Below are positions 18,091 through 64,000 of a DNA stretch of 64,000 nucleotides, in pieces (the stretch's first letter is position 1; every line of letters begins with the position of its first letter). The stretch covers positions 10,950-74,949 of the IMG/VR virus record IMGVR_UViG_3300009161_006153; one strand, 5' to 3'. The notes beneath the pieces are model-generated. The model ran no database searches. It had not been told where the DNA came from and saw nothing but the letters and a program-made list of their open reading frames with translations. This DNA comes from a virus. The translations under genes were made by a program, and so were the position numbers.

Positions 18091-20325
18091 ATGGCATTTA
18101 GAATACAATTAAGAAGGGACACCTCAGCTTTATGGGAAATAAACAACCCCTTACTTTTACAGGGTGAAGCTGGTTATGAATCAGACACTAGATATTTAAA
18201 AGTTGGTGACGGAATAACATACTGGAATAGTCTGCCTTATTTTGTAGGAATGACAGGCCCACAGGGTTCAACCGGCTCGCAAGGTCCAACCGGGTCACAA
18301 GGACCAACTGGATCTCAGGGCACAACAGGTCAGCAAGGTCCAACTGGACCCGCAGGAGGTGTTATAAATCTCACCACAATAGGAACCTCTGGACCTGCCA
18401 CTTTTTTGAATGATTTTTTAAATATACCGCAGTATCAAAGTGTCATCACTAATCCAATAACAGGAACAGGTTTAACCGGTTACATACCCCGATGGTCTAC
18501 TACCTCCTCTCTTACAAATTCTATTTTATTTGATAATGGTACGAATATAGGCATAGGTACAACAGGTCCTTCTTATAAACTAGATGTTAACGGGGAAATT
18601 AACACTAATATCGGGATAAGAATAGGCACTAATAATGCTAAAACCGGTTTTTATGGTGGAGCTAATATAGTAGATATGTGGGCAGGAAACGAGAAATTAG
18701 CTACATGGGGACTAGCTCCCGCTGGAGGCACACTATATGATCATTTTGCAGGTTGGGTTTTTACTACAGGTAGTACGGGTACTGCATCTTCCGCATTTAG
18801 AATATCCTCTAGCTTAGTATCAACATCTGCAAATAATGCAGGATTAACCCAACTTTTAATCAATCCAGGATATAGCCAGCAAACATTTGGTATAGGTACA
18901 TTAAGAGGCGTATATTACAATCCTAGCTTAGGTAGTGGCGGAATTAACACATCTACCCATATAGCTTTCGAAAATACAAGTGGTGATAATTCTTTTAATT
19001 CAGGTTCAGGTAAAACTACTTTTTTTGGTCAAGATTTACAAATCCGAAAAAATCCATCTGGCTATGCTGGTTTTAATACCATATATTCACAAGTTCCTTT
19101 ATTTACAGGGGGATTAACCAATTTTAGTGATACTACAAACGCATATATTACGCAAGGTGTTTTAGGCGGGAATAATATGGCTACTAACACTGTACTAATA
19201 AGAAACTTACTAGGGGACGTATCACAATCATCTGGCACATATACCAATACACAAATTTTAGGTAGAGTATTAAGTGCAACTGGAAGTCCTGAACATAGAT
19301 TCTTACATATTAATCCCAGTTATGATGACAACCAAGTTCTTAATACATATACAGGAACTATAAGAGGTGTTTATTACAATCTTACCCAAAGTACTTCTTT
19401 TCCAGCCGGGGGTAAAAACATAGCTTTTGAAAATGTAAATGGTGATAACTATTTAAACTCTACATCAGGTTCCACCTTAATAGGATACACATCGGGTGCA
19501 ACCTCTTCCTATGTACTAGATATAAACGGTAGAGCAAGAACTACACTAGCACTACAGGCAGGTTTAACAGGTCCTAGCGATGCAAATATAGCTGCTGGCG
19601 TTTTGTTTGCTTCTAGTGGAATAATAGCGACAACAAACGGCATTAATATAGCTTCTATTACAAGCTCGCCTTTTAATAAAAATGGGATATATCCAACTAG
19701 TAACGGCATGCTTTTTTTCAACGGAAATAACCAAATTGCTAAAATGCAGTTGCTAGTTGGTGTTTCCCCAGCCTATTTTGAGATCAATGCTTCTTTTAAT
19801 CCAGCAAACACGGGTAATACTGGAGACCAGTCAATTTTAAGGATACAGGGAGGAATTCAGCCAGCCGCTAATGTTAACAATTCTACCAATCAAACACAAA
19901 TAATAATAGACCCTACTATAGATCAATTCAACGGTCTTACCGCAGGTGGTACAGGTAGCGGGACTTTAAGAGGAATCTACTACAACCCAACTGTCACAGA
20001 TATAGCTGGATCAGCAAACAAACATGTAGCGATCCAAACCGTGAAAGGTGATGTCCTTTTTGGAACAGGGACATATGCAACAGGGGAGGGTGGATACGTT
20101 GGAATAGGCCAGGGATTTAACCCAACAACAGGAGCCACCGCAGATATGCCACAAAGGCCCTTGCACGTCAGGGATATAATGAGATTACAGTCTAGAAATA
20201 CATTCCCTGCTGGAGCTTCCGCAGGAGATATAATGATGTATACAGATGGATCTAGTAATGTCGATTTATATTATTACGGTGCAACTGCTGGCGTTGGCGG
20301 ATGGAGAAAGGTAAGCTTTATTTAA
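18091..20325 (+). CDS. Tail fibre/adhesin: Mtd-N/hyaluronidase-N-like anchor, collagen-like repeat and three internal beta-rich repeats
   Basis: MAFRIQLRRDT..W...NPLLLQGE.G.E.DT..LKVGDG.T.WNSLPY anchor, a Gly-X-Y run, NIGIGTTGPSYKLDVNG, and GT(L/I)RG(V/I)YYN three times. Confidence 0.8.
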   Translation: MAFRIQLRRDTSALWEINNPLLLQGEAGYESDTRYLKVGDGITYWNSLPYFVGMTGPQGSTGSQGPTGSQGPTGSQGTTGQQGPTGPAGGVINLTTIGTSGPATFLNDFLNIPQYQSVITNPITGTGLTGYIPRWSTTSSLTNSILFDNGTNIGIGTTGPSYKLDVNGEINTNIGIRIGTNNAKTGFYGGANIVDMWAGNEKLATWGLAPAGGTLYDHFAGWVFTTGSTGTASSAFRISSSLVSTSANNAGLTQLLINPGYSQQTFGIGTLRGVYYNPSLGSGGINTSTHIAFENTSGDNSFNSGSGKTTFFGQDLQIRKNPSGYAGFNTIYSQVPLFTGGLTNFSDTTNAYITQGVLGGNNMATNTVLIRNLLGDVSQSSGTYTNTQILGRVLSATGSPEHRFLHINPSYDDNQVLNTYTGTIRGVYYNLTQSTSFPAGGKNIAFENVNGDNYLNSTSGSTLIGYTSGATSSYVLDINGRARTTLALQAGLTGPSDANIAAGVLFASSGIIATTNGINIASITSSPFNKNGIYPTSNGMLFFNGNNQIAKMQLLVGVSPAYFEINASFNPANTGNTGDQSILRIQGGIQPAANVNNSTNQTQIIIDPTIDQFNGLTAGGTGSGTLRGIYYNPTVTDIAGSANKHVAIQTVKGDVLFGTGTYATGEGGYVGIGQGFNPTTGATADMPQRPLHVRDIMRLQSRNTFPAGASAGDIMMYTDGSSNVDLYYYGATAGVGGWRKVSFI
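18247..18360 (+). repeat. Collagen-like Gly-X-Y repeat
   Basis: GMTGPQGSTGSQGPTGSQGPTGSQGTTGQQGPTGPAG. Confidence 0.9.
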
Positions 20326-20383: not shown

Positions 20384-20950
20384 ATGGCATTCAGAGTACA
20401 AGTTAGAAGAGATACAGGTCAGAGATGGAGTTTAAATAATCCAATTTTGCTTAATGGTGAAATGGGATTCAACACTGACACCAACCAATTTAAGATAGGT
20501 AACGGTACAACCACGTGGAACTCCCTTTCCTATTGGACTGGAGGTGTAGGACCAACTGGACCAACAGGTCCTATAGGTCTTATAGGCCCAACCGGCCCAA
20601 CCGGACCTGGAAGTTCAGTTAGTTATAAAGTGTATACTGCTTTATTAACACAAACAGGTCAAGATGCTCCTGTAGCTATTGTATTAGAAAATACTATTGG
20701 GACTATTGTATGGACAAGAAACAGCGCGGGCTCTTACACAGGAACGTTAAATAACTCATTTCCTGAAAATAAAACATTTATCACATATACCCATGATGGT
20801 ATTAACGGAAACACAGGATATCCTGGAGGCGTTAGATGGAACAACAACGAGGTTGAGTTATCGTTTAATGATGGTATTATGAACCCTGGGCAGTTCATTG
20901 ATATAGGAGACGATGCTATTGAATCAATAGAAATAAGAGTTTACAATTAA
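20384..20950 (+). CDS. Short fibre protein: same N-terminal anchor as 18091, collagen repeat, different C-terminal domain
   Basis: MAFRVQVRRDT..W...NPILLNGE.G...DT..FKIGNG.T.WNSLSY anchor, GPT repeats, then YKVYTALLTQTG...IEIRVYN. Confidence 0.75.
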   Translation: MAFRVQVRRDTGQRWSLNNPILLNGEMGFNTDTNQFKIGNGTTTWNSLSYWTGGVGPTGPTGPIGLIGPTGPTGPGSSVSYKVYTALLTQTGQDAPVAIVLENTIGTIVWTRNSAGSYTGTLNNSFPENKTFITYTHDGINGNTGYPGGVRWNNNEVELSFNDGIMNPGQFIDIGDDAIESIEIRVYN

Positions 20951-23621: not shown

Positions 23622-24065
23622 ATGATTTTAGTATTTTTTGGACAGCCACATAGTGGCAAAACAACATTATCTAATGAGATTTTAAACGACGGGTTTGAAT
23701 TCTCGATAGATGGTGACGATCTTAGAGAAATGTTTTCGAATAAGGATTTTTCTAGAGACGGAAGAATTAAAAATTTAAACAGAGCTAGCGATATAGCAGC
23801 TTTCCTAAATAAAAAAGGTAAAAATGTTGTGATGTCTTTAGTTTATCCTATTAAGGAATGCAGGGATTATTTAAACAGTTTAAACCCAAATGAAGTTAAT
23901 TGGGTGTTTTTAAAATACCAAGGTGAGAGGGGGAGAGAAAAAAACCATGTTATTGATTTTGAATTCCCAGAGGCTAATGAGAAATACCTTGAACTTGATA
24001 CGTCTGAATTATCTATTTCCGAATGCTTAGAAAAAATAAAAGAATTATATGGAAGATCAAAATAA
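23622..24065 (+). CDS. cysC: Adenylylsulfate (APS) kinase
   Basis: GQPHSGKTT P-loop, IDGDDLR and DFSRDGRIKNL.RA motifs. Confidence 0.82.
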   Translation: MILVFFGQPHSGKTTLSNEILNDGFEFSIDGDDLREMFSNKDFSRDGRIKNLNRASDIAAFLNKKGKNVVMSLVYPIKECRDYLNSLNPNEVNWVFLKYQGERGREKNHVIDFEFPEANEKYLELDTSELSISECLEKIKELYGRSK

Positions 24066-24456
24066 ATCTTGGGAAAAAATATACCATATGAAATCATCGA
24101 TGAGTAACTCAGATTCTGGGTTCTCTATGTTTCTAGGAAGATGGCAGCCACTTCATGAGGGTCACAAAGAATTATTTAATCAGGAGTTTAGTTTAGGCAA
24201 GAATGTTTGTATCATGATAAGAGAGATGGACAAAGATTCAAAAAATCCTTTTAGCCCGGAAGATGTAATGAAAAATATCATGGATGAATTCCGTGATTTT
24301 TATGATTCCGGAAGGCTTAAAATTCTAGTAGTTCCAAATATAACTTCTATAAACTTTGGAAGATCAGTCGGATATGATATTATAGAACACGTCCCTCCTC
24401 AAAGTGTAGCAGAAATATCTGCCACTAAGATTAGGGAAAAAATGAAAATAGGTTAG
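24049..24456 (+). CDS. HxGH-family (cytidylyltransferase-like) nucleotidyltransferase
   Basis: FLGRWQPLHEGH, KNPFS and ISATKIRE motifs. Confidence 0.8.
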   Translation: MEDQNKSWEKIYHMKSSMSNSDSGFSMFLGRWQPLHEGHKELFNQEFSLGKNVCIMIREMDKDSKNPFSPEDVMKNIMDEFRDFYDSGRLKILVVPNITSINFGRSVGYDIIEHVPPQSVAEISATKIREKMKIG

Positions 24457-27558: not shown

Positions 27559-28344
27559 ATGCCCAGAAGAAAACCAAAACCTGAAAAAGTAATCCAGGAA
27601 AAAATAAAGGAAAGCTTGGACTCTATTATTATGGAGGAGTCTTTAGATTCTTTAGTTCTGAACACTGATGAGCTACCAAGATTAAAGACGACTGAAATGA
27701 TGAATTTCCTGGAGGAGAAAACAACAGCTTTAGCAGATGCACAGGCTCTTCTTGATTCTATATCTAAATTTTACGTGGATCCTGATGTTTATGGAAACAC
27801 TAGTCATATTGATCTGAAGAAGAAAATAGATGCTACTAATTTATCTGCAATGATGTTCCAATTAAAATCTGCACAGCATGCTATCGTAAAGCTCTTAGAG
27901 GAAATAGATCTGGGTAATGTACAACCAAGATTATTTGAAGTTCTAGCACAGTTGCAATCGCAGATCATGCAAATGCCTAAAGACCTCCAGCAGTACCTTG
28001 ATAAAATGGAGGGAAGCTATAAGAAAACAAAAATGGAGGTTGAGGAGAAAAGACTCTCCGGTGGTGTGGTAATGGAGCAGGAAGGATCTGATGGAAACTT
28101 CTCACCCGGAAAGATCTCAAATGTACCAGGCGGATTAAAATCTAGAGGAACTAAGGGACTGATGGAGGGATTGAGAGATATATTGGGGTCTGAAATAGTA
28201 GACGTAAAGCCATTAGAGGAAAATCCTAATTCAATAGTAAACGCCAGATTAAAAAAAGAGATGAATCAAACCAAAGAATCTGACTATGATAACGATGATA
28301 ACGGAACTTCAGATTTTACCTTAGAAGATGAAATTTTAGAATAA
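27559..28344 (+). CDS. Hypothetical protein, possibly terminase small subunit
   Basis: Coupled directly upstream of terL. Helical, with QPRLFEVLAQL resembling the T4 gp16 PR.(F/Y)EV motif. Confidence 0.5.
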   Translation: MPRRKPKPEKVIQEKIKESLDSIIMEESLDSLVLNTDELPRLKTTEMMNFLEEKTTALADAQALLDSISKFYVDPDVYGNTSHIDLKKKIDATNLSAMMFQLKSAQHAIVKLLEEIDLGNVQPRLFEVLAQLQSQIMQMPKDLQQYLDKMEGSYKKTKMEVEEKRLSGGVVMEQEGSDGNFSPGKISNVPGGLKSRGTKGLMEGLRDILGSEIVDVKPLEENPNSIVNARLKKEMNQTKESDYDNDDNGTSDFTLEDEILE

Positions 28345-30194
28345 TGCAAGATTTTTTAGAAGAAGAAATAGAATACTCTCAGGATTCCAGTTACTGGTCA
28401 ACCGAGAGAATTGACGATTTACTCAGAAGAGTTGACGAGGAGGGACTCGATTATAAAAGCGTAGAGAATCCTTTTTACGATAACAATCCTGATTTAAAAA
28501 GAGCAAATCTTTTATGGGAGTACACTAGTGAGGAGATAATAGAAATGAAGAAATGCGCTCAGGACGTAATATATTTTTCTAAGTATTGTCAAGTGATGAC
28601 CGATAACGGGCTCAACTTTTTAGACCTTAGAGACTACCAGCAATCTGTTCTTAGAGAATATCAATCCCATAGATTCAATGTTTTCCTTGCTCCTAGACAA
28701 GTAGGTAAATCGATAATATCCTCAGTTTTTCTAGTTTGGTATTTACTCTTCAATCACGATAAAAACGCTATGATCCTTGCAAACGTCGGGGACACCGCTG
28801 AAGAGCTAATGGACAAAATTAAAACAATAATAAAGGGATTGCCATTTTTTCTCAAACCGGGGATGCTTGTGAATAACGTGATGTCTATGAGATTTGATAA
28901 CGGGTGTAGAATATTAGCTAAAACAACAACTAAAACATCTGGTATTGGTTTTACCATCCATTTTTTGTACATGGATGAGTTTGCTCACATCAATCCAAAT
29001 TTTATAGAGGCTTTTTTCAGATCAACATACCCCACGGTGTCTTCGTCTAAGGTTTCTCGGATTATTGTAACATCTACACCTAATGGGTTAAATAAATTTT
29101 ATGAGATCTATCAAGGTGCTCTAGATTCGACTAACACGTTCAACCCAATACGTGTTGATTGGTGGCAAGTTCCAGGAAGGGATGAAGCATGGAAACAGGC
29201 AGAGATCGGAAACCTTGGAAGTGAGGAGCTTTTTAATCAAGAATATGGTAATCAATTCCTTAGCTCCTCCTCTTTGTTATTAGGATCAAACGAGCTTAAG
29301 AAAATAAAGTCAATAGAAACTGAATATTTCTGGAGAGAGCTAAGTCCCCTACATGATCTCGATCTCAACTATGAAAATCTTATTTGGCACCCTAAGTTTC
29401 AAATAGATCTTGCTAATTCTGGTGGTAAAAAATTTGTGTTGAGCATAGATCTGAGCGGGGGAGGAAAAGGTGATTTCACTGTGATTAATATTTTCAAAGC
29501 AACACCACTTCCGATGTCGATAATTGAAAAAATAACAACTTTCGATAATGAGACTGATTTTTTTGGCCTTGTGCAGGTAGGTGTTTTTAGAGACAATGAG
29601 ATCAAATTAGAGAATTTAGTAGAACTTGTAAATTCCTTAGTAGTAGACGTTCTTGGCTTAGAAAGAACAAAGCTTGTAATAGAGATGAACTATAAAGGAG
29701 AACTCCTTTATGATAAGTTGTGTCAGAATGATGATTTTTTTGACGGGATGTTTCTGTTTACGAAACACACAGAAAGCGCAAAAACATTAAAACCTGGTAT
29801 TAAGTACAACCAAAAAAACAAAATGCAGTATTGCGAATTGCTAAGAGGCCTAGTGAAAGAAAATAGGATCATGGTGAATGAAAAAAAATGGACAGTCCCT
29901 GAATTATTTACTTTTGGCTTAAATAATAGTGGAACCTACTCAAGCCAAACTGGACATGATGATGTGGCTATGACTCTAGTTAATCTATCGCCCTTATTTG
30001 AAGGTAGGGACTTTTCAGATTTAGTTGGGGAGCTTTATGATGAAATGGAGGGACCTTATAAAGAATTAATGCAGAAGAAAATAGAAGGAAGCGACCAATC
30101 TAATTCAGGATATAATCCAATGGATCCTTTTTCTAGAAGAAGTGTATCAACAAAAGAGGGAAAAAGCTATACAGATTTCAGTAAGCTCATTTAG
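28344..30194 (+). CDS. terL: Terminase large subunit (T4 gp17-like)
   Basis: LRDYQ, PRQVGKS, YMDEFAH, STPNG.N.FY, FNQEYG, IDLSGG..GDF and HDD.AM motifs. Confidence 0.95.
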   Translation: MQDFLEEEIEYSQDSSYWSTERIDDLLRRVDEEGLDYKSVENPFYDNNPDLKRANLLWEYTSEEIIEMKKCAQDVIYFSKYCQVMTDNGLNFLDLRDYQQSVLREYQSHRFNVFLAPRQVGKSIISSVFLVWYLLFNHDKNAMILANVGDTAEELMDKIKTIIKGLPFFLKPGMLVNNVMSMRFDNGCRILAKTTTKTSGIGFTIHFLYMDEFAHINPNFIEAFFRSTYPTVSSSKVSRIIVTSTPNGLNKFYEIYQGALDSTNTFNPIRVDWWQVPGRDEAWKQAEIGNLGSEELFNQEYGNQFLSSSSLLLGSNELKKIKSIETEYFWRELSPLHDLDLNYENLIWHPKFQIDLANSGGKKFVLSIDLSGGGKGDFTVINIFKATPLPMSIIEKITTFDNETDFFGLVQVGVFRDNEIKLENLVELVNSLVVDVLGLERTKLVIEMNYKGELLYDKLCQNDDFFDGMFLFTKHTESAKTLKPGIKYNQKNKMQYCELLRGLVKENRIMVNEKKWTVPELFTFGLNNSGTYSSQTGHDDVAMTLVNLSPLFEGRDFSDLVGELYDEMEGPYKELMQKKIEGSDQSNSGYNPMDPFSRRSVSTKEGKSYTDFSKLI

Positions 30195-33658: not shown

Positions 33659-34213
33659 ATGGCAGGCTTACCACACTATCAAAATTCGCTATCAGCGATT
33701 AATAAATTTGAACCGGTTTATTTAAACCAGTTCGAGATTACTATCTTACCCCCAGCTGCTGTTGTTGGTGGTGAGATTCTTTTGCAACATGTTACAAAGG
33801 TTAGTGGTCTTTCTCTAGATAAAAATCCAGGTTTAGCTACTCAGAAATACAAATTTGCCAAAAGAAATTATGCTGGGGCTAAACCAGATAACACATACAT
33901 GGATTTAAGTTTAACTTTTACCGTTAACTTGAACGATGCCAACTCTATGTATGTCTTTAAAACATTAAGACAATGGTCTGATTTGGTCTACAATCCTTTA
34001 ACTGGTGCTATGGGCTTAAAAACGGATTACACTGGAACTATAGTGGTCTCGATATTTAATAAGACCGGCGACGTTTTTAGAAGAATAACTTGCAGGGACA
34101 CTTATCCGACCAAACCGATAACAGCGATGAACCTTAATTATACCTCGGCAGATATTTTTAAGATAACTGATATGGTCTGGGCAGTAGATTACTGGGATGA
34201 TCAATTCCTTTAA
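33659..34213 (+). CDS. gp19: Tail tube protein (gp19-like), paralog 1
   Basis: Follows the sheath gene. EPVYLNQFE, LRQWSDLVYNPLTG.MGLKTDY and DYW motifs. Late promoter GATAAATA at 33646. Confidence 0.78.
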   Translation: MAGLPHYQNSLSAINKFEPVYLNQFEITILPPAAVVGGEILLQHVTKVSGLSLDKNPGLATQKYKFAKRNYAGAKPDNTYMDLSLTFTVNLNDANSMYVFKTLRQWSDLVYNPLTGAMGLKTDYTGTIVVSIFNKTGDVFRRITCRDTYPTKPITAMNLNYTSADIFKITDMVWAVDYWDDQFL

Positions 34214-34229
34214 AAAAGCAATATAAAAA

Positions 34230-34805
34230 ATGGCTGGTTTACCACATTATACAAATTCTAGGGCAGCAATAAACAACTTCGAACCTGTTTATTTAAATCA
34301 ATTTGAGGTTTTAATAAACCCTCCCTCTGGCATCGTAGATTCTAGTTTATCCTTTAGAGGTGAACAGATCTTAACCCAACAGGTGAAAAGTATAACTGGT
34401 TTAGCTGTTGATATCTTACCAAATGATTCAGTTACTCAGAATTATAAATTTGCATCTAGACGTTATGCAGGGGGTGAACCATCTACATCTGATATGACCC
34501 TAGCTATTGAGTTTGAGATAAATCTAAATGATGCAAACTCGATGACTGTTTATAAAATTTTAAGGCAATGGTCTGATTTAATATACAATCCTCTAACTGG
34601 TGCAATGGGACTAAAAACAGATTATGTTGGTTCAATGCTCATCTCGATTTTCAATAAAAGAGGGGACGTTTTTAGAAGGATCAGAATACCTTCTTGTTTT
34701 TTAAGCCAGGCCATAAATTCCATGGAGCTCGACTATGAGAATGCTGGAATCTATACAGTAACAGGTAATTGGATCTGTGACTACTGGGAAGATACTTTTC
34801 TCTAA
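34230..34805 (+). CDS. Tail tube protein (gp19-like), paralog 2
   Basis: Strongly similar to the upstream ORF (MAGLPHY, EPVYLNQFE, LRQWSDL.YNPLTGAMGLKTDY). Confidence 0.75.
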   Translation: MAGLPHYTNSRAAINNFEPVYLNQFEVLINPPSGIVDSSLSFRGEQILTQQVKSITGLAVDILPNDSVTQNYKFASRRYAGGEPSTSDMTLAIEFEINLNDANSMTVYKILRQWSDLIYNPLTGAMGLKTDYVGSMLISIFNKRGDVFRRIRIPSCFLSQAINSMELDYENAGIYTVTGNWICDYWEDTFL

Positions 34806-38554: not shown

Positions 38555-39166
38555 ATGCTGAAACAAAAAGAAAAAAACATCCAGAATCTGGCAGAGGACT
38601 TTATTGTCAAAAAATGCGACATCTCCTTCAAAAAACTCTTCGAAAGACTAAAGCCAGGAGTCTCAAATCATTGTTTACTTATTCTCAAAGATCCAGATCT
38701 TGCAGAAGATGCTTTCCTTAACACCATGTCTAAGATCTGGACTAAAATAGATCAGTATGATATGGAGAGAGGAAACTTCTCTACCTGGTGTTATAATATC
38801 GCCAGAAATGAATCTCTCCTTTTAATAAAATCAAGAAAGAAAGTTCTAAGCTTTTCTGACAGTGATTTAGAATTTCTATGCTCCACCAATTCTCTAGGTG
38901 ATTACGGGGGTAATTATCAAATGGATGATGATCCATCATTTAATTTATTTTGTGAAAAAAATAAAACCGATGACGTTTACGAATTGGTTTTAGAAGAAAT
39001 CAAAGCTCTACCCGAATTATATAGAGATATAATGATTGATCGGGAAATCAATGGAATGAAATACAAGGATATTGCTGAGAAGTATAATATCAAAAAAAGA
39101 TCAATTGCTACTCGGATTAGAAGAGCAAGGGGTAGGATACGTAAAAAAATGAGTGGGAAACAATAA
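38555..39166 (+). CDS. RNA polymerase sigma-70 family factor, ECF-like
   Basis: Region 2 AEDAF...IW.KIDQYD..RGNFSTWCYNIARN. Region 4 ALPELYR...GMKYKDIAEKY......IATRIRRAR. Confidence 0.9.
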   Translation: MLKQKEKNIQNLAEDFIVKKCDISFKKLFERLKPGVSNHCLLILKDPDLAEDAFLNTMSKIWTKIDQYDMERGNFSTWCYNIARNESLLLIKSRKKVLSFSDSDLEFLCSTNSLGDYGGNYQMDDDPSFNLFCEKNKTDDVYELVLEEIKALPELYRDIMIDREINGMKYKDIAEKYNIKKRSIATRIRRARGRIRKKMSGKQ

Positions 39167-43424: not shown

Positions 43425-45854
43425 ATGGATCTTATAAATCAAGTTAGACTTTTAAAGCAGCAAACTAATTCGGAGGAGGTCAAAAACCTATGTGAAAGTT
43501 TTCTGAAAGGTGAAATTCAAATTTCAGAAAGTCAACTAAACGAGATGACTTCCGATCTTCAAAATATTGGGGCATCTTACAACCCTCCTAAGGACCTAAG
43601 AGAGCAAATCAGAGACGAGGAGATTTCAGCATCCAAGAGAATAGCTGAATCTTTGATGAACAATTGGGAGGTAGGTAAAATTAAATCCCTTAACAACTCA
43701 GGCTCATATCTTTCATTGGAAAAGGAGATAAAGGAAAATGAATCAAACCTAGTTGAGTCACTGTCTCAGCATATATCTGATCCTAGTGCAAGATCCTTTG
43801 TTGAAACACAGGGACTAAACAATCTTGGAATACTTGAAGGATTGGATACCTTAAAAGGATGCGGGATAAATCAGCATCCAGGTTTTAAAATGATGGCTGA
43901 AAAATATTCCGGCTTAATCAAATATAAAAATATACCAGAAACGAGATTAATCCATGGATTTATTCACGAGTGCTCTGCTTTCAAATGGGACAGCGACGTA
44001 GAACAAGTTGTTGAATCAATTCAGAATAGGGCTGAGAAATACTCAAGAGAAATAGAGATAATCAAAGTTTTAGAATCAATACAAAATAGCGCTAATAGAT
44101 CTTTTTATTCTGAACTTAGCGATTCTTTGAACGAGTGGATAGTTTCAAATGATAAATCCTCGGCTCTTTTAGCAAAAAATATTCAAAAATGGTCTTTTAA
44201 TCCAGTTGTTAAAAACCTAATTAATTTTTTAACAATAAACGAATCAAAGGGAACAGGAAAACTTGAACTTCCTATTGTAAATCAGGGAGAATCTAGAGTG
44301 GAAAGAATTTATACTGCGGCTCACATCTCTGAAGGAGTTTCTATTTTCTTAATAGGAAACACCCTTTTTGAAATGAGCGACAACGGCTTAACAAAATTAG
44401 GATCTAACGGCATTAAAGGTCTTCCCAATGATTATGTAAATTTAATTTCAGCTCTAGCCAAGACTTATGTAAAAGTAAATGAGGATGGAGTTTTTGTAAA
44501 TCTAGGAAGAAGCACAGTTAGATTAATAGAAGAGGATTTAGAAAAAAGTGTTTATTTTAATAATAAAAAAATTAAATTCAATACTTTAAATGAGCTTGGA
44601 AAATACCTCTCAATGGAAATCGGTTCTTTTATTGGAGGTGTGAATGAAAATGCAGTGGTTAAGGATGTTATTGAAATTTACAAAGGACTAGAAAACATCG
44701 TGGAACTTGATTTTGCTAAATCGATAGTTTCTAATATTTATGAAGGTGTTAGTATAAATCTTTTAAAGCACAATAATGAAATATACTTAAACCGCGTTAA
44801 CGAATCAATGAGAGAGAATTCACTGTATAAAGTGAACGGAACTCAGGCTGTTCAAGCGGTGAAAGAATTTTTAAGATACGATATCTCTGAAGGATTAACC
44901 GAGTTTTTAGAAGGAGATCATAAGGTAAAATCAATAATGGTTAACGATAGAACCAAGGTTTTAGAAAATATCTCTAAGGTTGAATTAGAGATTGATAAGA
45001 TAGAGTCATTGATAGAGTCAAGCACAGAATATGCACAATCAGAACAAATAAAATCTGCTCACAGATTGCTAAGTAATGAATTGGGCATTCTTAAAGAGAA
45101 GTGGAATCAAATAAATAACGAATTAAAAAAATTAGATTTCGGCATATCTCAATCTTGTGATTTGAACGAGGATAGCGCTTTTGATATTGGAGACTATATA
45201 AAAGTTAAAGAATCTGGTGAAACCGGAAAAATCATTTCGATCGACGGAACCTCTGGAAGATATACTGTTTTGTTAGATAATGGAAAAACATCTGATTTTA
45301 TCGTAAATGAAATAGTTGATTTGGATACTGCTTTAAGTCAAGCAGCAGATAAAAATTCAGAAGAAAATCCAGAAGATTATGATGGTGAAGAGGAAGTTAA
45401 AGAGAATACTTTGAACAAATCAACTCTGTCTGTGGAAGAGCAGGTGAAGATATTAAAAAATCTTGCTAGCGGTCATGGATTCTCAAAAGCTCCTGGAACG
45501 AAAAAAGGAGATATAGATATTAAGGTAAATGATCTTCAGGGTTACAACCTAACAATGAATGAAACTTCAAAGAAGGAAGCAAGTTCTCAAGATACCTATG
45601 CTAAAGCACCAGGGGATAGCAAAATGGGAAGCCAAAAAAATGCTAATCCTAAAGGAAACCTATCATCTGCTCCGGTAGCTAAGGGAATGGTAAATGGAAA
45701 AACTGAGGGTAAAGATTCATTCCCAACAAATGCGCCAGAAACTAAGGGTAAATCTGATTTTGAAGCGGGAGATGAAACTGGATCTGACTATGAAACAGGA
45801 TACAATTTAAGAGAGGGAAACATTGACGAGGATAACGATTTAAAAAAAAACTAA
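43425..45854 (+). CDS. Large probable prohead-core/internal head protein; a -1 frameshift would extend it to 46015
   Basis: Two late promoters (43365, 43394), many (L/I/V)xE sites, SH3/KOW-like FDIGDYIKV, and C-terminal xxAP repeats. Ends T TTA AAA AAA AAC TAA. Confidence 0.65.
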   Translation: MDLINQVRLLKQQTNSEEVKNLCESFLKGEIQISESQLNEMTSDLQNIGASYNPPKDLREQIRDEEISASKRIAESLMNNWEVGKIKSLNNSGSYLSLEKEIKENESNLVESLSQHISDPSARSFVETQGLNNLGILEGLDTLKGCGINQHPGFKMMAEKYSGLIKYKNIPETRLIHGFIHECSAFKWDSDVEQVVESIQNRAEKYSREIEIIKVLESIQNSANRSFYSELSDSLNEWIVSNDKSSALLAKNIQKWSFNPVVKNLINFLTINESKGTGKLELPIVNQGESRVERIYTAAHISEGVSIFLIGNTLFEMSDNGLTKLGSNGIKGLPNDYVNLISALAKTYVKVNEDGVFVNLGRSTVRLIEEDLEKSVYFNNKKIKFNTLNELGKYLSMEIGSFIGGVNENAVVKDVIEIYKGLENIVELDFAKSIVSNIYEGVSINLLKHNNEIYLNRVNESMRENSLYKVNGTQAVQAVKEFLRYDISEGLTEFLEGDHKVKSIMVNDRTKVLENISKVELEIDKIESLIESSTEYAQSEQIKSAHRLLSNELGILKEKWNQINNELKKLDFGISQSCDLNEDSAFDIGDYIKVKESGETGKIISIDGTSGRYTVLLDNGKTSDFIVNEIVDLDTALSQAADKNSEENPEDYDGEEEVKENTLNKSTLSVEEQVKILKNLASGHGFSKAPGTKKGDIDIKVNDLQGYNLTMNETSKKEASSQDTYAKAPGDSKMGSQKNANPKGNLSSAPVAKGMVNGKTEGKDSFPTNAPETKGKSDFEAGDETGSDYETGYNLREGNIDEDNDLKKN

Positions 45855-46093: not shown

Positions 46094-46122
46094 GAATATC
46101 ATTCCAAATAACCCAAAACTAA

Positions 46123-46482
46123 ATGGCAAAAGACTATGTAAGAAATCCGGACCTCCTTGTGGCGGTAAAAGAATCCAAAAATCAAGGTAAGTTAACCCCT
46201 GAAACAATAAGGATGTTTAATTTAATGATACAAGGTATTTCAAAAAAAATGGCTTACAAAGATCAAGATGACAAAGACGATTGCATGGCTTTTGCAATGG
46301 AGGATCTTTGTAAATACTGGGATAGATTCAATCCTGAGAAATCTAATAACCCGTTTGCGTATTTCACTCAAATAGCTAAAAATGGTTTTGCAAAAGGATG
46401 GAAAAAGCTCCATCCCCCGAAAAATCCAAAGACTATTCCTTTTAGTTACATAACTGGCGATGATAACAGCTATAATGTTTAA
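46123..46482 (+). CDS. gp55: Late transcription sigma factor (T4 gp55-like)
   Basis: YVRN.DLL and KYWDRFNPEKSNNPFAYFTQIA.N.F motifs. Confidence 0.85.
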   Translation: MAKDYVRNPDLLVAVKESKNQGKLTPETIRMFNLMIQGISKKMAYKDQDDKDDCMAFAMEDLCKYWDRFNPEKSNNPFAYFTQIAKNGFAKGWKKLHPPKNPKTIPFSYITGDDNSYNV

Positions 46483-46490
46483 TCATTACC

Positions 46491-46976
46491 ATGACAGATA
46501 TAAAAAAAATAAAGCCTAGTGGCGAGTATAAATCTGGAAAATTTGAGCCTAGCAATCCCCAAAAATATATTGGAGACATCCACAATATAATTTACAGATC
46601 TTCGTGGGAGTACAGATTTTGTGTCTATTGTGATACAAATGAAAGCATACTAAAATGGTCCTCCGAGCCAATTGCTATAAAATACGTTAATCCCTTGGAT
46701 AAAAAGGAGCATGATTATAATGTCGATTTTTATATAAAGGTTCAAGCTATCTCAGAGATCCAAGAGTGGATTATAGAGATCAAGCCTGAAAAACAAACTA
46801 AAAAACCTATATTCGAAGGGTCCAATGCAACACTACAAAAGCTAAAATCTTATAACAGGAACATGCAGATCTGGATAACGAATCAAGCTAAATTTAAAGC
46901 AGCAAAACACTGGGCGGAAAAAAGAGGTTTTAAATTCGGTGTAGTTGGTGAAAATTTTCTATTTAGAAGTAAATAA
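46491..46976 (+). CDS. gp4: Head completion nuclease (T4 gp4/TnsA-like)
   Basis: GKF.P.NP.KY.GD..NIIYRSSWE, WSSE, Y..DF, IEIKP and NQAK..AA motifs. Confidence 0.88.
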   Translation: MTDIKKIKPSGEYKSGKFEPSNPQKYIGDIHNIIYRSSWEYRFCVYCDTNESILKWSSEPIAIKYVNPLDKKEHDYNVDFYIKVQAISEIQEWIIEIKPEKQTKKPIFEGSNATLQKLKSYNRNMQIWITNQAKFKAAKHWAEKRGFKFGVVGENFLFRSK

Positions 46977-47575
46977 TGAGCTATAAATCACTAGTAGAAT
47001 CTTATAAGAATGAGTTTAAAAGCCAAGCTGATCTGGTTAAATCCACGGATAAAACATTCATGGACAAATATTCTAATGGGGATTCAGGATTTAGACCACC
47101 TTTCATTACTGGAACAATTTATTACTTTAAATACAATACTACAACAGAAATATCTAAGGATCGTAGTTTTATTAACAGGAATCCCCTTTTACTTTGCACA
47201 GATTATATGAGAGGAAGTAATGGAACTATAGTAATTGGGATAGATCTTATTACCGTGCCACCTTTTGAGAGAATAGAGATAATTTCTAGGGTTTATGATA
47301 CCTTTAATAATACTATAGAATCTAACGAGAGCTCTTTAAATAAAGGGGGAAAGCAAACCCCTATCCAGTTTAGAAATGGTGTACTGGAGAGGTTGATGCG
47401 GGGGACTGGATATTCTAAATCCTTATTCGGATTTAAACTTGATTTTATAGATTCTGTTGTTGAGATAAAACTAGAGGATTGGTCTAAAATACCTTATTTA
47501 AGATCATCCTCCATAGAAGGGAAGAGCGTAGAAGAAATATATAAAGAATATAAAGTGAAATTAAAAGGCACATAG
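46976..47575 (+). CDS. DNA end protector-like protein (T4 gp2-like)
   Basis: G.IYYFKY, R.PLL and GIDL..VPP..R motifs. Lies next to gp4. Confidence 0.55.
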   Translation: MSYKSLVESYKNEFKSQADLVKSTDKTFMDKYSNGDSGFRPPFITGTIYYFKYNTTTEISKDRSFINRNPLLLCTDYMRGSNGTIVIGIDLITVPPFERIEIISRVYDTFNNTIESNESSLNKGGKQTPIQFRNGVLERLMRGTGYSKSLFGFKLDFIDSVVEIKLEDWSKIPYLRSSSIEGKSVEEIYKEYKVKLKGT

Positions 47576-47593
47576 TGACTAAAAACATTTAAA

Positions 47594-49189
47594 ATGGCAG
47601 GTTTTAACGATAGCACACCACAAGGATCTCCTGTAGTACAGAGGATAAGGGACTCCCTTAAAAGAATTAGTACTTTTGGAATGAAATATGACGATATGGT
47701 CATAAGAAATTCGCAGGCTGTTGGTGTAACGGAGGCTGCTTTTCTAAACAAAAATAAATCCAATGTAGAGGACGAGGCTATGCTTTGGACTCTTGCCAAG
47801 CAGGATATTGCAACAAAGCAATTTATCTCTTACTTTGATAAGGATTATAAGGGTAAACGTGATTATCTCAGAAAATTTTCACTTAATCCCGAAATAGAAT
47901 GGGTTCTTGATACCTTATGTGACGAATCAGTTTCATACGATCCATCTAATTTCTTTGCATACCCTGATTTTTTAGACCTAACAGATATCAACGAAAAAAT
48001 AAGGGATGAGATAAATGACACGTACAAGAGGATTTATGATATCTGGGGATTCACAGATGATATTACGGCTTGGCAATATTTTAGACAATTTCTTGTTGAC
48101 GGATTTCTTTGCTTTGAAATAATTTACAATAATATTGGTGATGAAATTATAGGGTTCAAAGAGCTTGACCCCGTAACTATTATACCGTCAGTAGAAAAAC
48201 AAGCAGATGGGTCTTTTCTTAGCACATGGATGCAATATCCTCAAGATCCTAGGAGAAGAAGAGTTCTATATGATCCCCAGATTATCTACATATCTTATGC
48301 AAAGGGTAACTCTGTTTCCCGTGTAAGTTATGTTGAAAGACTGATTAGACCTTATAATATACTTAGAATCATAGAATACACGAGAGTGATCTGGTCTGTT
48401 ATGAATGCATCTTTTAAAATGAAGATGACCGTTCCGATAGGAACTAAATCACAACAGAAGGGAATGCAAACTCTAGGTGAACTGATGAGTATCTATAAAG
48501 AGGATATCCAGATGAACGATGACACCGGTGAATTGCTAGTTGATGGTAGACCCAAAATACAGTTCTATAAAAATTATTTAATGCCTTCAGGAGTAAACGG
48601 TACTCCACAGATAGAACCACTTACTATGGATGGTCCAAATTTGAACGATACAACTCCATTGAACTATTTCTTTGATAAATTCGTTCAAGAATCTAAAGTC
48701 CCAGCTTCTAGATTTCACGGACCTGACGGGGGAAATACATCAACTTACACTAATGCTGGGGACGGGTTAGATAAGGAGGAGATAAGATTTCAAAAATTTA
48801 TTTCTAGGCTTAGATCTATATTTCAAGAGGTAATGACAAAGCCTCTTTGGATACAAATGATAAAAAAACATCCGAGCTTAGAAAAAGATTTCATGTTTAA
48901 AAGTCAGCTTGGTCTAAAATACTTTTCAGATAATCCATTTAAACTTAATCAAGAAATGGACATCATTAATAACAGGAAAGAATCACTTACCTCTATGATT
49001 TCACTAACTGGTGATGAGGATAAGCCTTATTTTTCAGTTCCTTTTCTTGTTGAAAACTTCTTAGGAATATCTCGACAGGATTTAACAGCAAATGCAGAAG
49101 CTATTAAAAGAAAGAAGAAAGAGAAAGAAAAGGAAGAGAAGAAAGGAAAGGGTAAGGATAAAAAAGACGAAGGTGAAATAACTTTATAA
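47594..49189 (+). CDS. gp20: Portal vertex protein (gp20-like), paralog 1
   Basis: PEIE..LD.LCDE, FRQFLVDG, ELDP, SYVERLIRPYN.LRIIE, ESKVPASRF and EEIRF.KFI.RLR..F motifs. Confidence 0.9.
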   Translation: MAGFNDSTPQGSPVVQRIRDSLKRISTFGMKYDDMVIRNSQAVGVTEAAFLNKNKSNVEDEAMLWTLAKQDIATKQFISYFDKDYKGKRDYLRKFSLNPEIEWVLDTLCDESVSYDPSNFFAYPDFLDLTDINEKIRDEINDTYKRIYDIWGFTDDITAWQYFRQFLVDGFLCFEIIYNNIGDEIIGFKELDPVTIIPSVEKQADGSFLSTWMQYPQDPRRRRVLYDPQIIYISYAKGNSVSRVSYVERLIRPYNILRIIEYTRVIWSVMNASFKMKMTVPIGTKSQQKGMQTLGELMSIYKEDIQMNDDTGELLVDGRPKIQFYKNYLMPSGVNGTPQIEPLTMDGPNLNDTTPLNYFFDKFVQESKVPASRFHGPDGGNTSTYTNAGDGLDKEEIRFQKFISRLRSIFQEVMTKPLWIQMIKKHPSLEKDFMFKSQLGLKYFSDNPFKLNQEMDIINNRKESLTSMISLTGDEDKPYFSVPFLVENFLGISRQDLTANAEAIKRKKKEKEKEEKKGKGKDKKDEGEITL

Positions 49190-49193
49190 AAAA

Positions 49194-50843
49194 ATGGCAG
49201 GATTTTTAGATGGGTTTAAACCCAATCAATCAGCGTTAGGTAACATCTTAAGAAGTTTGGGAAAAATCTCAAAGTTTGGGATGGAGTATGATGACATGGT
49301 TGTAAGAAACTCCCAAGCCATTGGAAAAAGCGAATCCCAATTTTTCAACCAGCAGGGAACTGGGTTTACTGAAAATGATGCTTTTTATTGGACCCTTTCC
49401 TATCAGGACACGAGAGTAAGAAAATACATTGCATACTTCGACAAAGATTATATTGAGAAAAGGAATTACCTCAGAAAATTTTCATTGAACGGAGAGATTG
49501 AATTTATACTTGACACAATAACTGACGAGTGTGTATCGTATAGTGATCGTAATTTTTTTGCTACACCCTCTTTTGTAAATATAGGGGACATGAAGGATAA
49601 AGTGAAAGAAAAAATTACTGAACATTATAATAGAATTTATAACGTTTTTGGATTTCAAAATACTATTCTAGCTTGGCAAGTATTTAAGCAATTCTTAATA
49701 GACGGCTTTCTTTCTTACGAGATAATTTATGACAGCAAGGGAAAGGAAATAATAGGTTTCAAGGAATTAGATCCAACATCACTTCAACCAGCTGTAGAGA
49801 AGATAAGTGAAACTGAATATAAGCAATTCTGGATTCAGTATCCTAAAAACCCACAAATGACAAGAAGACTCACTAATGAGCAGGTCATTTATATTTCGTA
49901 TGCAAAAGGAAATGCTGTTTCAAGGGTTAGCTATGTCGAAAGATTAATAAGGTCTTATAACATACTTAGGATAATGGAAAATTCTAGGGTTATCTGGAAT
50001 GTTATGAATGCTTCTTTTAGATTAAAATTTATTATCCCTACAGGAACACAATCACCACAAAAAGCTCTTCAAACTCTTGGTCAGATAATGTCTAACTACA
50101 AAGAGGAGTATTCTATTAATGATACATCTGGCGAATTAACTATAAACGGAAGGCCAAAAATACAGTTCTATAAAAATTATTTATTTCCTGAGCAAAACGG
50201 GCAAAGCCCAGAGGTATCTACCTTAAATCCAAGTGGTCCTGATTTTAATGTCATGGATAACGTTCTGTATTTTTTTAATAAGCTCAAAATGGATTCAAAA
50301 ATACCTTATGCGAGGTTTGCATCTAGAGGAGCAACGCCAATTAATTCTCAGATTAGTATAGATGCATTGGAAAGAGACGAGATTAGATTTGAGAAGTTTT
50401 TAAGAAGACTTAGATCTATTTTTCAGGAGATATTAGTTAAGCCTCTCTATATCCAAATGTGTCTCGAATTCCCTGAATTATCAAAGGATAGAGCTTTTAA
50501 AACTAATCTTGGACTTGATTTTTATAGGGAGAGCGAATTTGAAGAACTCGTTCAACTTTCAAATTATAAAAAGAGAGCAGACTTTGTTACTGGACTAGGC
50601 GAATATAAAATGAAAATAGGTGAAGAAGAGGTACCATATTTTGACAAGGATTTCTTGGTTCAAAGGTTTATGCAATTAAGTCCGGACCAATTCAAACAAA
50701 ATGCAGATTACAAAAAGAAAGAATCTGCAGAGGCGGAAAAAGCATCTAAAGAAAAAGAAGGTGGTGAAGAAGGTGGAGCGGAGGGAGCAGAGGGAGCAGC
50801 GGGAGCAGCTGAGGGGGAAAAAGAAGGCGGAGTAACACTATAA
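49194..50843 (+). CDS. gp20: Portal vertex protein (gp20-like), paralog 2
   Basis: Same motifs as the upstream ORF, full length, with SKIPYARF and RDEIRFEKFLRRLRSIF. Confidence 0.9.
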   Translation: MAGFLDGFKPNQSALGNILRSLGKISKFGMEYDDMVVRNSQAIGKSESQFFNQQGTGFTENDAFYWTLSYQDTRVRKYIAYFDKDYIEKRNYLRKFSLNGEIEFILDTITDECVSYSDRNFFATPSFVNIGDMKDKVKEKITEHYNRIYNVFGFQNTILAWQVFKQFLIDGFLSYEIIYDSKGKEIIGFKELDPTSLQPAVEKISETEYKQFWIQYPKNPQMTRRLTNEQVIYISYAKGNAVSRVSYVERLIRSYNILRIMENSRVIWNVMNASFRLKFIIPTGTQSPQKALQTLGQIMSNYKEEYSINDTSGELTINGRPKIQFYKNYLFPEQNGQSPEVSTLNPSGPDFNVMDNVLYFFNKLKMDSKIPYARFASRGATPINSQISIDALERDEIRFEKFLRRLRSIFQEILVKPLYIQMCLEFPELSKDRAFKTNLGLDFYRESEFEELVQLSNYKKRADFVTGLGEYKMKIGEEEVPYFDKDFLVQRFMQLSPDQFKQNADYKKKESAEAEKASKEKEGGEEGGAEGAEGAAGAAEGEKEGGVTL

Positions 50844-50904
50844 TTCCAAAAACCTAAATCATTTATAACCAAGAGGAAAGTATATTTCTCCAAAATTTTT
50901 AAAA

Positions 50905-51912
50905 GTGGAAAAGAAAGTAAAGGATCTTTTAGCTGAAAGAAACCATTTTTCAGATATCAGAATTCTAGTTATTGGAGATGTTATGTTGGATCATTATCTC
51001 TACGGTAATGTTGAAAGGATTTCCCCGGAGGCTCCTGTACCTGTAGTTGTAAAATCCGATGAAAAGTTTTTCTTAGGTGGTGCGGGTAATGTTTTCTCTA
51101 ATATTATTTCTTTAGGCGGAAAATGTGATTTGATATCTGCTCTAGGTGAAGATCAGAATTCTAGTTATATTAAAGATCTCGTGGTAAAGCATAGCTCTGG
51201 TAGTTTTTTATTCCTAGACTCATCAAGAATAACTACTGTAAAACAAAGGGTGATGTCGGGTCACCACCAGTTATTAAGAGTAGACTCTGAAACGACCCTC
51301 GATATAGATGGGTCGGTACAATCAAACATAATTCAGAAGGTAAAAGAAATAGCTAAAAAATATGACTGCATAATATTGTCTGATTATAACAAAGGAGTTT
51401 TAACCCCAGAAGTTATAAGGACTGTAATAATGGAATGCAGAGAATTAAATATACCTGTTATAGCAGACCCGAAGATTAAATATCTTGATTTTTATTCAGG
51501 ATGTACTATCATAAAACCTAATTTTAAAGAATTTTTAAATCTGTGTGAAACCACTATCTCTCCTGACGATTTAGATTCGATAAGATCTTATGCAATAAAA
51601 ATAAAAGATAGGTTCAGACTGGAAGCGGTTGTTATAACACTTTCTGATAGGGGAATATTTTATCTAGACCAGAATGAAAATTTCATGGGAGAAGCTTTTA
51701 AAATACCAGTCTCGGATGTTTCTGGCGCTGGTGATACTGTCCTTGCAGTGCTTGCACTTTGCTATTCTATAGGATTAGAAAAATCTTTTACTGTGGATCT
51801 GTGTAACATCGCCGGGTCTATTGCTTGTCAAAGAGTAGGATCAGCTTGTGTTACCCTGGATGATCTCAATTCACATCCTCATCTGAGAGAGAAATATTCA
51901 TTCAAAAAATAA
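50905..51912 (+). CDS. hldE: D-glycero-beta-D-manno-heptose-7-phosphate kinase (HldE/RfaE kinase domain, PfkB family)
   Basis: VIGDVMLDHYLYG.VERISPEAPVPVV, GGAGNV, LSDYNKGVL, DPK and DVSGAGDTV motifs. No adenylyltransferase domain is present. Confidence 0.88.
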   Translation: MEKKVKDLLAERNHFSDIRILVIGDVMLDHYLYGNVERISPEAPVPVVVKSDEKFFLGGAGNVFSNIISLGGKCDLISALGEDQNSSYIKDLVVKHSSGSFLFLDSSRITTVKQRVMSGHHQLLRVDSETTLDIDGSVQSNIIQKVKEIAKKYDCIILSDYNKGVLTPEVIRTVIMECRELNIPVIADPKIKYLDFYSGCTIIKPNFKEFLNLCETTISPDDLDSIRSYAIKIKDRFRLEAVVITLSDRGIFYLDQNENFMGEAFKIPVSDVSGAGDTVLAVLALCYSIGLEKSFTVDLCNIAGSIACQRVGSACVTLDDLNSHPHLREKYSFKK

Positions 51913-62613: not shown

Positions 62614-64000
62614 ATGTTTAAAAACAACAGTGATATCTTACTAAACGAACAAATGGTTTTCATGGTTGAAAAGCAGGAGTTTTTTTTAGAGTCTAAAAAA
62701 GAGTCATCGAGTGGAGATTACGTCCTTGAGGGGATAGCAGCTGTTTTTGGGAAAGTTAACAATAACAATAGAATCTACGAGGAAGCTGAGTATTTGCCAC
62801 ATCTCGATTATCTTAAAGACAAGATCAATCAAAAGAGGCTTTTGGGTGAATTAGATCATCCTGAAAAGTTTGACGTTTCTCTTAAGAATATCTCTCACAT
62901 GATAACCGATCTTAATTACGATAAATCTGGTCGTAAATTATTGATCAAAGTGCAACTGCTTGATACACCAGCTGGACAAATTGCTAAAAATCTAGTTGAT
63001 GCTGGGGTACCTCTTTCCATCTCTTCTAGAGCTGCTGGTCAGGTTGGTCCAGATAAGAAGGTGCAGATCAAAAAGATCTTCACCTATGATCTTGTTGCTG
63101 ATCCTGGATTTGAGAATGCTCAGCTTAAAAGAGTTTATGAAAGTGCTGGTTTTACAGAGGATGAATTTAAGACCTACCAGTCTAATAGTATACTAAATAA
63201 TTTAGAGTGTTTAAACGAATCATTCGGTCTAGAAAATGAATCGGCATTGAAGATATATAAAGTTGATAACAATGAGGAGTTTATCAATCTTATTAACAAA
63301 ACAGAAATTAAAAATAAAAATTTCCTTATGGAAAATAATGAATTTGTAACATCTAACGAGCTCAATCAATATTCAATTCTTTTGAAAAAAGAAATTGATT
63401 CTATCAAGTCTTCTATCACAGATATTAAGAAAGAAAAAATAGAATTGAGCGAATCAGATTCCAAGCATTCTTCTGAGAATGAAATGAAGCTTCAAGAGAG
63501 AGTAGAAAAATTAGAAAAGTATGCGGAGTACTTATCTGAGAATCTTCAGAATTCTATAAGTTATGGGGAATACCTTGCTGAGAATTTGGATAATTCAATC
63601 TCTTATAGCAAGTATTTGGCTGAGAACCTAGATAAGAACATATCTTATTCTAAGTACCTAGCTGAGAATGTTGATAAATCTATTTCTTATTCTGAGTATG
63701 TTGCAGAGAATGTTGATAAGAATATAGAATACTCTAAATACTTAGCGGAAAAATTGGACAATAACATTTCATACTCTGAGTATCTAGCTGAGAATTTAGA
63801 TAATGGTATTGCTTACAGCGAATACATTGCAGAAAATCTAGACAAAGGGATAGCTTACAGCGAATACATTGCTGAGAATTTAGAAAAAGGAATATCTTAT
63901 ACTGAATATGTTGCTGAAAAAGTTAATAACGGTATAGAGTATACTGAATACGTTGCTGAAAATCTGAACAAAAACATCGAATATTCTGATTATCTTGCTG
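62614..64000 (+). CDS. gp21: Prohead core protease (T4 gp21-like) fused to a scaffold-like repeat region; runs off the window end
   Basis: Absent from the ORF track because it has no stop in the window. Manual translation gives LEGIAAVFG..NNNNRIY, LLGELDHP, LLDTPAG.IAK.LVDAG, ISSRAAG and YDLVADPGF. Confidence 0.92.
   Translation, partial: MFKNNSDILLNEQMVFMVEKQEFFLESKKESSSGDYVLEGIAAVFGKVNNNNRIYEEAEYLPHLDYLKDKINQKRLLGELDHPEKFDVSLKNISHMITDLNYDKSGRKLLIKVQLLDTPAGQIAKNLVDAGVPLSISSRAAGQVGPDKKVQIKKIFTYDLVADPGFENAQLKRVYESAGFTEDEFKTYQSNSILNNLECLNESFGLENESALKIYKVDNNEEFINLINKTEIKNKNFLMENNEFVTSNELNQYSILLKKEIDSIKSSITDIKKEKIELSESDSKHSSENEMKLQERVEKLEKYAEYLSENLQNSISYGEYLAENLDNSISYSKYLAENLDKNISYSKYLAENVDKSISYSEYVAENVDKNIEYSKYLAEKLDNNISYSEYLAENLDNGIAYSEYIAENLDKGIAYSEYIAENLEKGISYTEYVAEKVNNGIEYTEYVAENLNKNIEYSDYLA
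63520..64000 (+). repeat. 42-bp (14-aa) tandem repeat, consensus Y(S/T)EY(L/V/I)AENLDKxIx, at least 11 copies
   Basis: YAEYLSENLQNSIS-YGEYLAENLDNSIS-YSKYLAENLDKNIS-YSKYLAENVDKSIS and so on, continuing to the window end. Confidence 0.92.

Follow-up and report, generated by a model that had tools for sequence, protein, structure and literature searches.

The homo-dodecameric portal is among the most invariant features of tailed phages and herpesviruses, and it underlies models of prohead nucleation, of the symmetry mismatch between capsid and motor, of the packaging motor and of DNA gating. T4 and all of its characterised relatives carry one portal gene, which encodes gp20, and build a homo-dodecamer, whereas in the phage described here there are two portal paralogs that are always found together. 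The DNA analysed is 64 kb (hereafter the window) of the IMG/VR viral contig IMGVR_UViG_3300009161_006153, which is 74,949 bases long and is estimated to be 24% complete. Its source is an uncultured freshwater giant phage, and the sequencing runs X1-X10 are metagenomes from fresh water. Every long open reading frame (ORF) in the window lies on the + strand, and the GC content is about 34%. The original prediction, which was made from the sequence alone, described two adjacent and intact gp20-like ORFs of 531 and 549 amino acids, and the coordinates, the start codons and the matches to the T4 portal family agree with that description. The pair is arranged as follows.

47594..49189, + strand: portal paralog A, 531 amino acids, gp20-type, always the upstream member of the pair
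49190..49193, + strand: spacer of 4 nucleotides from the stop codon of A to the ATG of B, read from the sequence
49194..50843, + strand: portal paralog B, 549 amino acids, gp20-type, always the downstream member of the pair

Both genes begin with ATG and have no internal stop codons. The two proteins are 49% identical with 69% positives over 517 residues (514 bits, BLASTP), and the identical blocks that had been quoted as common to them are present. Each matches PF07230 (Portal_T4) over almost the full profile, with A at E 5.3e-58 and 197.2 bits (profile positions 7-432 of 433) and B at E 1.9e-66 and 225 bits (positions 3-433 of 433), where the curated cut-off is 22.9 bits. Both also match PHROG 213 (portal). 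In a phmmer search of the PDB, B matches the T4 gp20 entries 3JA7, 6UZC and 9LU6, all at E about 2e-21 (3JA7 at E 1.9e-21), and it aligns to 3JA7 over residues 94-518. An AlphaFold 2 (AF2) model of A, built from a 146-row alignment, has a predicted local distance difference test score (pLDDT) of 76.6 and a predicted template modelling score (pTM) of 0.72. The top 13 Foldseek hits of this model are all T4 gp20 chains (E 4e-19 to 7e-15, template modelling score up to 0.70), and its matches include 9MKB, 6UZC, 9LU7 and 3JA7.

Thus, the portal fold with its wing, stem helices, clip, tunnel loop and crown is found in both proteins, in A by model and in B by alignment. The order of these elements is that of T4 gp20 (PF07230; 3JA7, 6UZC, 9MKB, 9LU6/9LU7), on which the model of A superposes best, and the secondary-structure elements of B also follow portal order in a low-confidence fused model of the two proteins. 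The surrounding module likewise resembles that of T4, with gp55, gp4, gp2, the terminase, the prohead protease and a gp23-like capsid protein. Unlike gp20, to which the model of A is only 16-18% identical in structural alignments, A and B each carry a conserved N-terminal extension of 80 residues, which starts with MAGF, and a charged tail of low complexity. Outside the clade, the portals nearest in sequence are those of single-portal huge phages (LR756500, at 462 kb; the Lak megaphages; and contigs like the library representative P0001). They are 42-47% identical to both A and B and share the MAGF start, the type of neighbourhood and the setting in a large genome, but these phages carry a single gene each for the portal and the tail tube. 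The nearest portals from cultured phages are those of Prevotella, Tenacibaculum and Chryseobacterium phages.

Domain boundaries of T4 gp20 were taken from the literature (PMC4493910) and transferred to A and B through the alignment to 3JA7. All portal domains are kept in both copies. Within genomes, A and B are most alike in stem helix alpha-5 (identity 0.80), the clip (0.61) and the wing (0.54-0.57), and they are least alike in the channel loop (0.25), the crown (0.29) and the tunnel loop (0.32). The helix at the tip of the clip is common to both. In T4, adjacent subunits share a beta-sheet in the clip, the tunnel loops touch neighbouring subunits, and the clip tip serves as the binding site first of the terminase and then of the neck (PMC4493910). 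The stem helix and the clip sheet, which make contacts between subunits in gp20, are therefore the parts that A and B have most in common, from which we infer that the two proteins might co-assemble. The parts that line or cap the DNA channel are those that have diverged the most, and the channel of such a ring would thus be lined by two alternating sets of DNA-contacting loops.

The pair is not a product of assembly, a conclusion that had been reached before from the divergence of the two genes. Four further sequencing runs yielded contigs across the A/B junction, which excludes an assembly duplication. One of these, a 47-kb contig from a different study, covers positions 46100-51000 with 33 substitutions and no insertions or deletions, and shorter contigs from the three other runs cross the junction as well. 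The strain differences that are listed are mostly synonymous, in A and B alike.

There are 384 related stretches in IMG/VR, as found by a scan with the A/B alignment. In total, at least 568 stretches of IMG/VR match, and further ones are present in metagenome contigs. The best 80 loci constitute clade 1, and a deeper clade 2 of another 80 loci was reached via the library representative P0003. In all 160 loci A is followed by B, save for four loci that are cut by a contig end and one in which A is split. Every clade 1 locus with enough DNA has A and then B, both intact, and the same arrangement is present in 80 of the 80 clade 2 loci, one of them with A split in two. Both genes are complete in 138 of the 160 loci (139 pairs when the window's own is included); in the remaining loci one copy runs off the contig end, apart from the single locus with a split A. 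Clade 1 orthologs are 69-86% (A) and 65-83% (B) identical to the window's proteins, and those of clade 2 are 51-55% (A-like) and 48-56% (B-like) identical. Portal lengths range from 524 to 580 amino acids across the loci, and no domain has been gained or lost. Complete relatives of 373, 430 and 349 kb, two of which carry terminal repeats, have exactly two portal genes each, in tandem. Overall, two full-length portal genes are found in the window and in five relatives that were searched whole, including these three.

This phage therefore departs from one portal gene per genome, which is the usual state although not a strictly defining one. A single portal is found in the P0001-like contigs, in contigs of 173-254 kb that were searched whole, and in LR756500 and LR756501. 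A second portal in LR756501, a huge phage of 735 kb, was considered as an independent duplication and rejected, because the 101-residue open frame at LR756501.1 15166-15351 is a fragment that matches only profile positions 374-431.

A careful IQ-TREE run with 64 sequences groups the A copies of clades 1 and 2 (support 100/99), the B copies of the two clades (99/97), and all A and B copies together (100/99), and the A and B subtrees mirror each other. A quick tree of 135 rows agrees with this grouping. The trees thus place one tandem duplication on the stem of the clade, before the two deep clades split, and they indicate that A and B have since been co-inherited without gene conversion. The pair has been retained since before the two clades diverged to about 52% identity. 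An ancient retained duplication had been predicted, and the phylogeny bears this out in that the A and B groups each span both clades; no related locus with enough DNA lacks the second copy.

The two copies are constrained to a similar extent. Omega by the Nei-Gojobori method, from 54 pairs of orthologs whose dS lies between 0.05 and 1, is 0.019 (A) and 0.023 (B). These values correspond to equally strong purifying selection, and the relaxed selection on the second copy that would have counted against the original prediction is not seen. Total tree lengths on a fixed 58-genome tree are 4.45 for A and 4.67 for B, and A, B and gp55 are the slowest of seven neighbouring genes. To measure evolutionary rate covariation (ERC), branch lengths of these seven genes were re-estimated on one tree and regressed on the other genes. 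The A-B pair ranks first of 21 gene pairs with r = 0.65, and the next-highest pair is ligase with clamp loader (r 0.40); values for other adjacent pairs are 0.26 for gp2-A, 0.14 for gp4-gp2 and 0.05 for gp55-gp4. A-B also ranks first in each clade, on terminal branches alone and on internal branches alone (r 0.55-0.70). Thus, co-retention of the paralogs under similar constraint and coupling of their rates, both of which are expected of a hetero-oligomeric ring, are found here.

There are 104 sites that are conserved in 99 outgroup portals. Of these, 74 persist in both copies, 7 in A alone, 10 in B alone and 13 in neither. B is slightly nearer to the ancestral sequence in the clip and the channel loop, and it retains G336, N318, K278, R276 and P349 at positions where A varies. 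A complementary loss of ancestral residues was considered and is not counted as support for mutual dependence, given 7 A-only and 10 B-only sites against 74 shared ones.

The spacer between A and B is 1-22 nucleotides in the 138 complete pairs. From this spacing the two genes are probably co-expressed. No terminator-like site is predicted on the + strand between 45800 and 52000. The starts of A and B (47580-47600 and 49185-49200) have the same A-rich context, AAAATGGCAGG, without a Shine-Dalgarno (SD) sequence, which would be in keeping with a host whose translation is not dependent on SD pairing, for example a member of the Bacteroidota. In 77 of the 138 complete pairs (loci L003-L163), A and B are in the same frame and are separated by one stop codon (76 TAA, 1 TAG) and 0-6 sense codons, so that read-through of the stop would yield a predicted A-B fusion of about 1090 amino acids. 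An excess of same-frame pairs over one third is not established, because many of the loci are near-duplicates.

At the other end from the MAGF start, which A and B have in common with the outgroups, the tails are low in complexity. The tail of A has a Lys/Glu block followed by an acidic stretch rich in Gly, Ala and Pro, and the basic block of B is shorter. A Lys-rich tail in A and an acidic one in B had been reported, both with the ending (I/V)TL, and this part of the description stands for the window itself. Counted after the last conserved Asn, basic residues outnumber acidic ones by 13 to 9 in the tail of A (net +4), which ends in ITL, whereas acidic residues predominate by 13 to 7 in that of B (net -6), which ends in VTL. 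Across orthologs the contrast does not hold except as a trend. Among 102 distinct pairs, a net acidic charge is usual for the A tails as well (median -1 to -3, compared with -5 to -7 for B) and the window's A tail is the most basic one seen, although Lys and Arg are more abundant in the A tail than in the B tail in 94 of the 102. A C-terminus of the form (V/F/I)(T/K)(L/I) is present in 79 A and 46 B sequences of the 102. Oppositely charged tails were rejected as a functional signature in the form stated, because both tails are usually net acidic across orthologs.

Portal tails across the radiation (49090-49189, 50700-50843 and library portals P0001-P0025), those of single-copy outgroups included, are acidic and Gly-rich, and they mostly end in hydrophobic residues (such as FTL, VTL, FGL or GDMF). 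These ends resemble a short docking motif on a flexible acidic tail.

The remainder of the head appears to be encoded once. A large terminase, a prohead protease and an HK97-fold capsid protein, which make up a head and packaging gene set, are all found. Each of the three complete relatives has one full-length large terminase (one genome has an additional weak and partial match), one match to the prohead protease family PF03420, and one large and one small gp23-like protein, and the gp23-like capsid protein is encoded about 14 kb downstream of the portals. Judged from the counts of terminase, protease and capsid genes, the complete relatives show no trace of an additional system for head building or packaging.

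Two diverged and conserved portal copies suggest, but do not prove, a ring of two kinds of subunit. The original prediction, which offered a heteromeric 6+6 portal or two portal vertices as readings, is supported in part, by the retained duplication and the equal constraint on both copies. We propose that A and B co-assemble into one mixed portal ring at a single portal vertex, and we regard the chances for and against this proposal as evenly balanced. A and B would each function as a portal subunit, and they would be produced jointly in the late phase of infection. The simplest form would be an alternating A6B6 ring, which has 6-fold in place of 12-fold symmetry. Mixing would be expected because the paralogs of a self-assembling homomeric ring are able to mix from birth. 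Possible parallels are the thermosome alpha/beta, the MCM2-7 complex, which is eukaryotic, the V-ATPase proteolipid ring and the CaMKII alpha/beta dodecamers. In these, co-retained paralogs of a self-assembling ring subunit are likewise similar in size and fold, and mixing may be viewed as the default after duplication. Those rings have been shown by experiment to be mixed, whereas co-assembly of the portal proteins is here only inferred.

There is also precedent within T4-like heads for a duplicated structural protein, in that gp23 and gp24 occupy distinct adjacent positions of one shell. However, gp24 is placed at a geometrically different site, the pentons, whereas a portal ring has twelve equivalent positions, and pairing would lower its symmetry rather than fill another lattice site. 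In T4, 12-fold symmetry gives way to 6-fold symmetry at the neck interface between gp13 (12 copies) and gp14 (6 copies) (PMC12929587). An alternating A6B6 portal, if it exists, would shift this change into the portal itself.

Several observations weigh against a mixed ring. Every solved portal known to us is a homo-oligomer, so the structural prior is opposed to it, and a literature search that covered few subscription journals found neither a duplicated nor a heteromeric portal. The rate covariation of A and B could reflect homologs that answer to the same partners, or a recombination history that neighbouring genes share. The 104 sites conserved in outgroups show no clear complementary loss of the kind that would make A and B mutually dependent. 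An AF2 model of a fused A-B protein was based on the natural in-frame A-TAA-B read-through of locus L003 (table 6, 31 paired rows), but with a pLDDT of 53.9, a pTM of 0.35 and no homomer control it is too poor to judge an interface. No sequencing run from RNA in the RNA-run listing has sequence from 46100-51000, and no cultured relative was found in the phage collection that was searched.

One possibility is that A and B form two separate homo-dodecameric rings with different jobs. There might be two classes of particles or head sizes that are each nucleated by their own portal. Alternatively, one ring might be the packaging portal, and the other, a portal-like one, might be located at another vertex or stacked inside the head. 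This arrangement would accord with the homo-oligomeric state of all solved portals, and A and B are each complete portals by every test. The strong divergence of the channel loop, tunnel loop and crown could mean different roles in DNA handling, and the tails differ in composition as a trend. We nevertheless consider two rings rather unlikely. Each complete genome encodes a single large terminase, a single protease and a single large capsid protein, which argues against two separate head or portal systems, and the clip tips of A and B remain alike, as if they face the same partners. The contact regions are the most similar parts of the proteins, and proteins made together from genes 1-22 nucleotides apart would mix unless exclusion had evolved. 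The very high rate covariation is also easier to explain by contact.

It is more doubtful still that only one copy is the structural portal and that the other is an accessory protein with a portal fold, for example an initiator or chaperone of assembly at the membrane, a transient component of the prohead, or an internal or ejected protein. Portal assembly in T4 is known to need helper proteins. In favour of this reading, A is slightly more derived than B at ancestral sites in the clip and channel loop and scores lower against the Pfam model (197 compared with 225 bits). However, an accessory role is expected to relax constraint on the surface that binds terminase and neck, whereas A and B are under constraint from end to end, at the clip tip, stem and wing as well. 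The two copies evolve at equal overall rates, and the range of lengths (524-580 amino acids) and the set of domains have remained stable. Finally, a redundant or decaying duplicate, or an assembly artefact, without a function of its own is refuted by the data. Beyond the general rarity of duplicated portal genes nothing speaks for it, while independent assemblies cross the junction, the pair predates the divergence of the two clades, omega is about 0.02 in both copies and a disrupted copy is present in only 1 of 160 loci. The mixed ring is favoured because the proteins should be able to mix and are probably made together, their contacts and clip tips are alike, their rates are coupled and the rest of the head is single-copy. 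The data lean toward both copies being located at one portal vertex, without showing their stoichiometry. Sequence comparison shows the portal of this clade to be functional, ancient and obligately paired, and the architecture proposed for it goes beyond these data.

There are only three pairs of paralogs in the window, which are the portals, two tail-fibre-like proteins and two tail tube genes. The last of these pairs is also in tandem, and its members are 56% identical.

33659..34213, + strand: tail tube paralog 1, 184 amino acids (PHROG 32623, E 2.7e-38; tail tube PHROG 3629)
34230..34805, + strand: tail tube paralog 2, 191 amino acids (PHROG 32623, E 3.2e-31; tail tube PHROGs 45 and 3629)

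All six of the two-portal genomes that were examined have this pair, and none of the five one-portal genomes has it. Because this distribution is the same as that of the portal pair, both duplications appear to map to the same stem lineage, which amounts to a single co-occurrence and not to a statistical association. The parallel duplication of the tube points to an entire DNA conduit that has been remade with paired subunits. Perhaps this clade of freshwater phages, with genomes of 350-430 kb, has a conduit that consists of an A6B6 portal (C12 to C6) and a two-protein tail tube, both of which would derive from duplications on the same stem, although this broader proposal is tentative. The tail-fibre-like proteins (18091-20325 and 20384-20950) also adjoin each other. 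They share an N-terminal region of about 110 residues with 40% identity, which matches many tail fibre and collagen-like PHROGs.

Other genes for head, packaging and late expression in the window are listed here.

28344..30194, + strand: large terminase, single copy, the packaging partner of the portal (PHROG 5989, E 4.2e-57)
46123..46482, + strand: gp55-like late sigma factor, at the start of the conserved block (PHROG 234, E 5.7e-15; Sigma70_r2; in 139 of 160 loci)
46491..46976, + strand: gp4-like head completion or head closure protein (PHROG 218, E 1.5e-47; in 147 of 160 loci)
46976..47575, + strand: gp2-like DNA end protector, directly upstream of A (PHROG 429, E 1.3e-5; in 132 of 160 loci)
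62614..63999, + strand: prohead maturation protease, single copy, open at the 3' end of the window (PHROG 207, E 4.9e-41)

Downstream of B there are genes for a PfkB kinase, an ATP-dependent ligase and a gp44-like clamp loader. The PfkB-family sugar kinase (50905-51912, with a GTG start), which lies between B and the ligase, is found in only 17 of the 160 loci and is thus a variable insertion, while the block around it is conserved. An 809-residue protein (43425-45854; in 53 of 160 loci), to which no function was assigned, is encoded immediately upstream of the gp55-gp4-gp2-portal genes and has a charged and low-complexity C-terminal third. The window also encodes a sheath, and for a neck protein there is only a weak, sub-threshold match within the 845-residue ORF at 25018. 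Two sigma-like factors are encoded at 38555-39166 and 46123-46482, one of the sigma-70 family and one gp55-like. The T4 late promoter TATAAATA has 3 matches where 11 are expected and is thus rarer than chance, and scans for sigma-70-like promoters and for terminators are at chance level, so operon boundaries are not claimed. Elsewhere in the window, there are an APS-kinase-like ORF (23622-24065) and a cytidylyltransferase-like ORF (24049-24456).

If A and B do share one ring, neither tailed phages nor herpesviruses would offer an earlier known example of a heteromeric portal. In this large and environmentally widespread clade, strong selection has preserved two portal genes and two tube genes since a single ancient duplication, so that nature itself provides a test of whether a portal has to be homomeric. 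The roles of the loops that line the channel could also be told apart, because it is there that A and B differ the most, and the pair can be tested directly without a cultured host.

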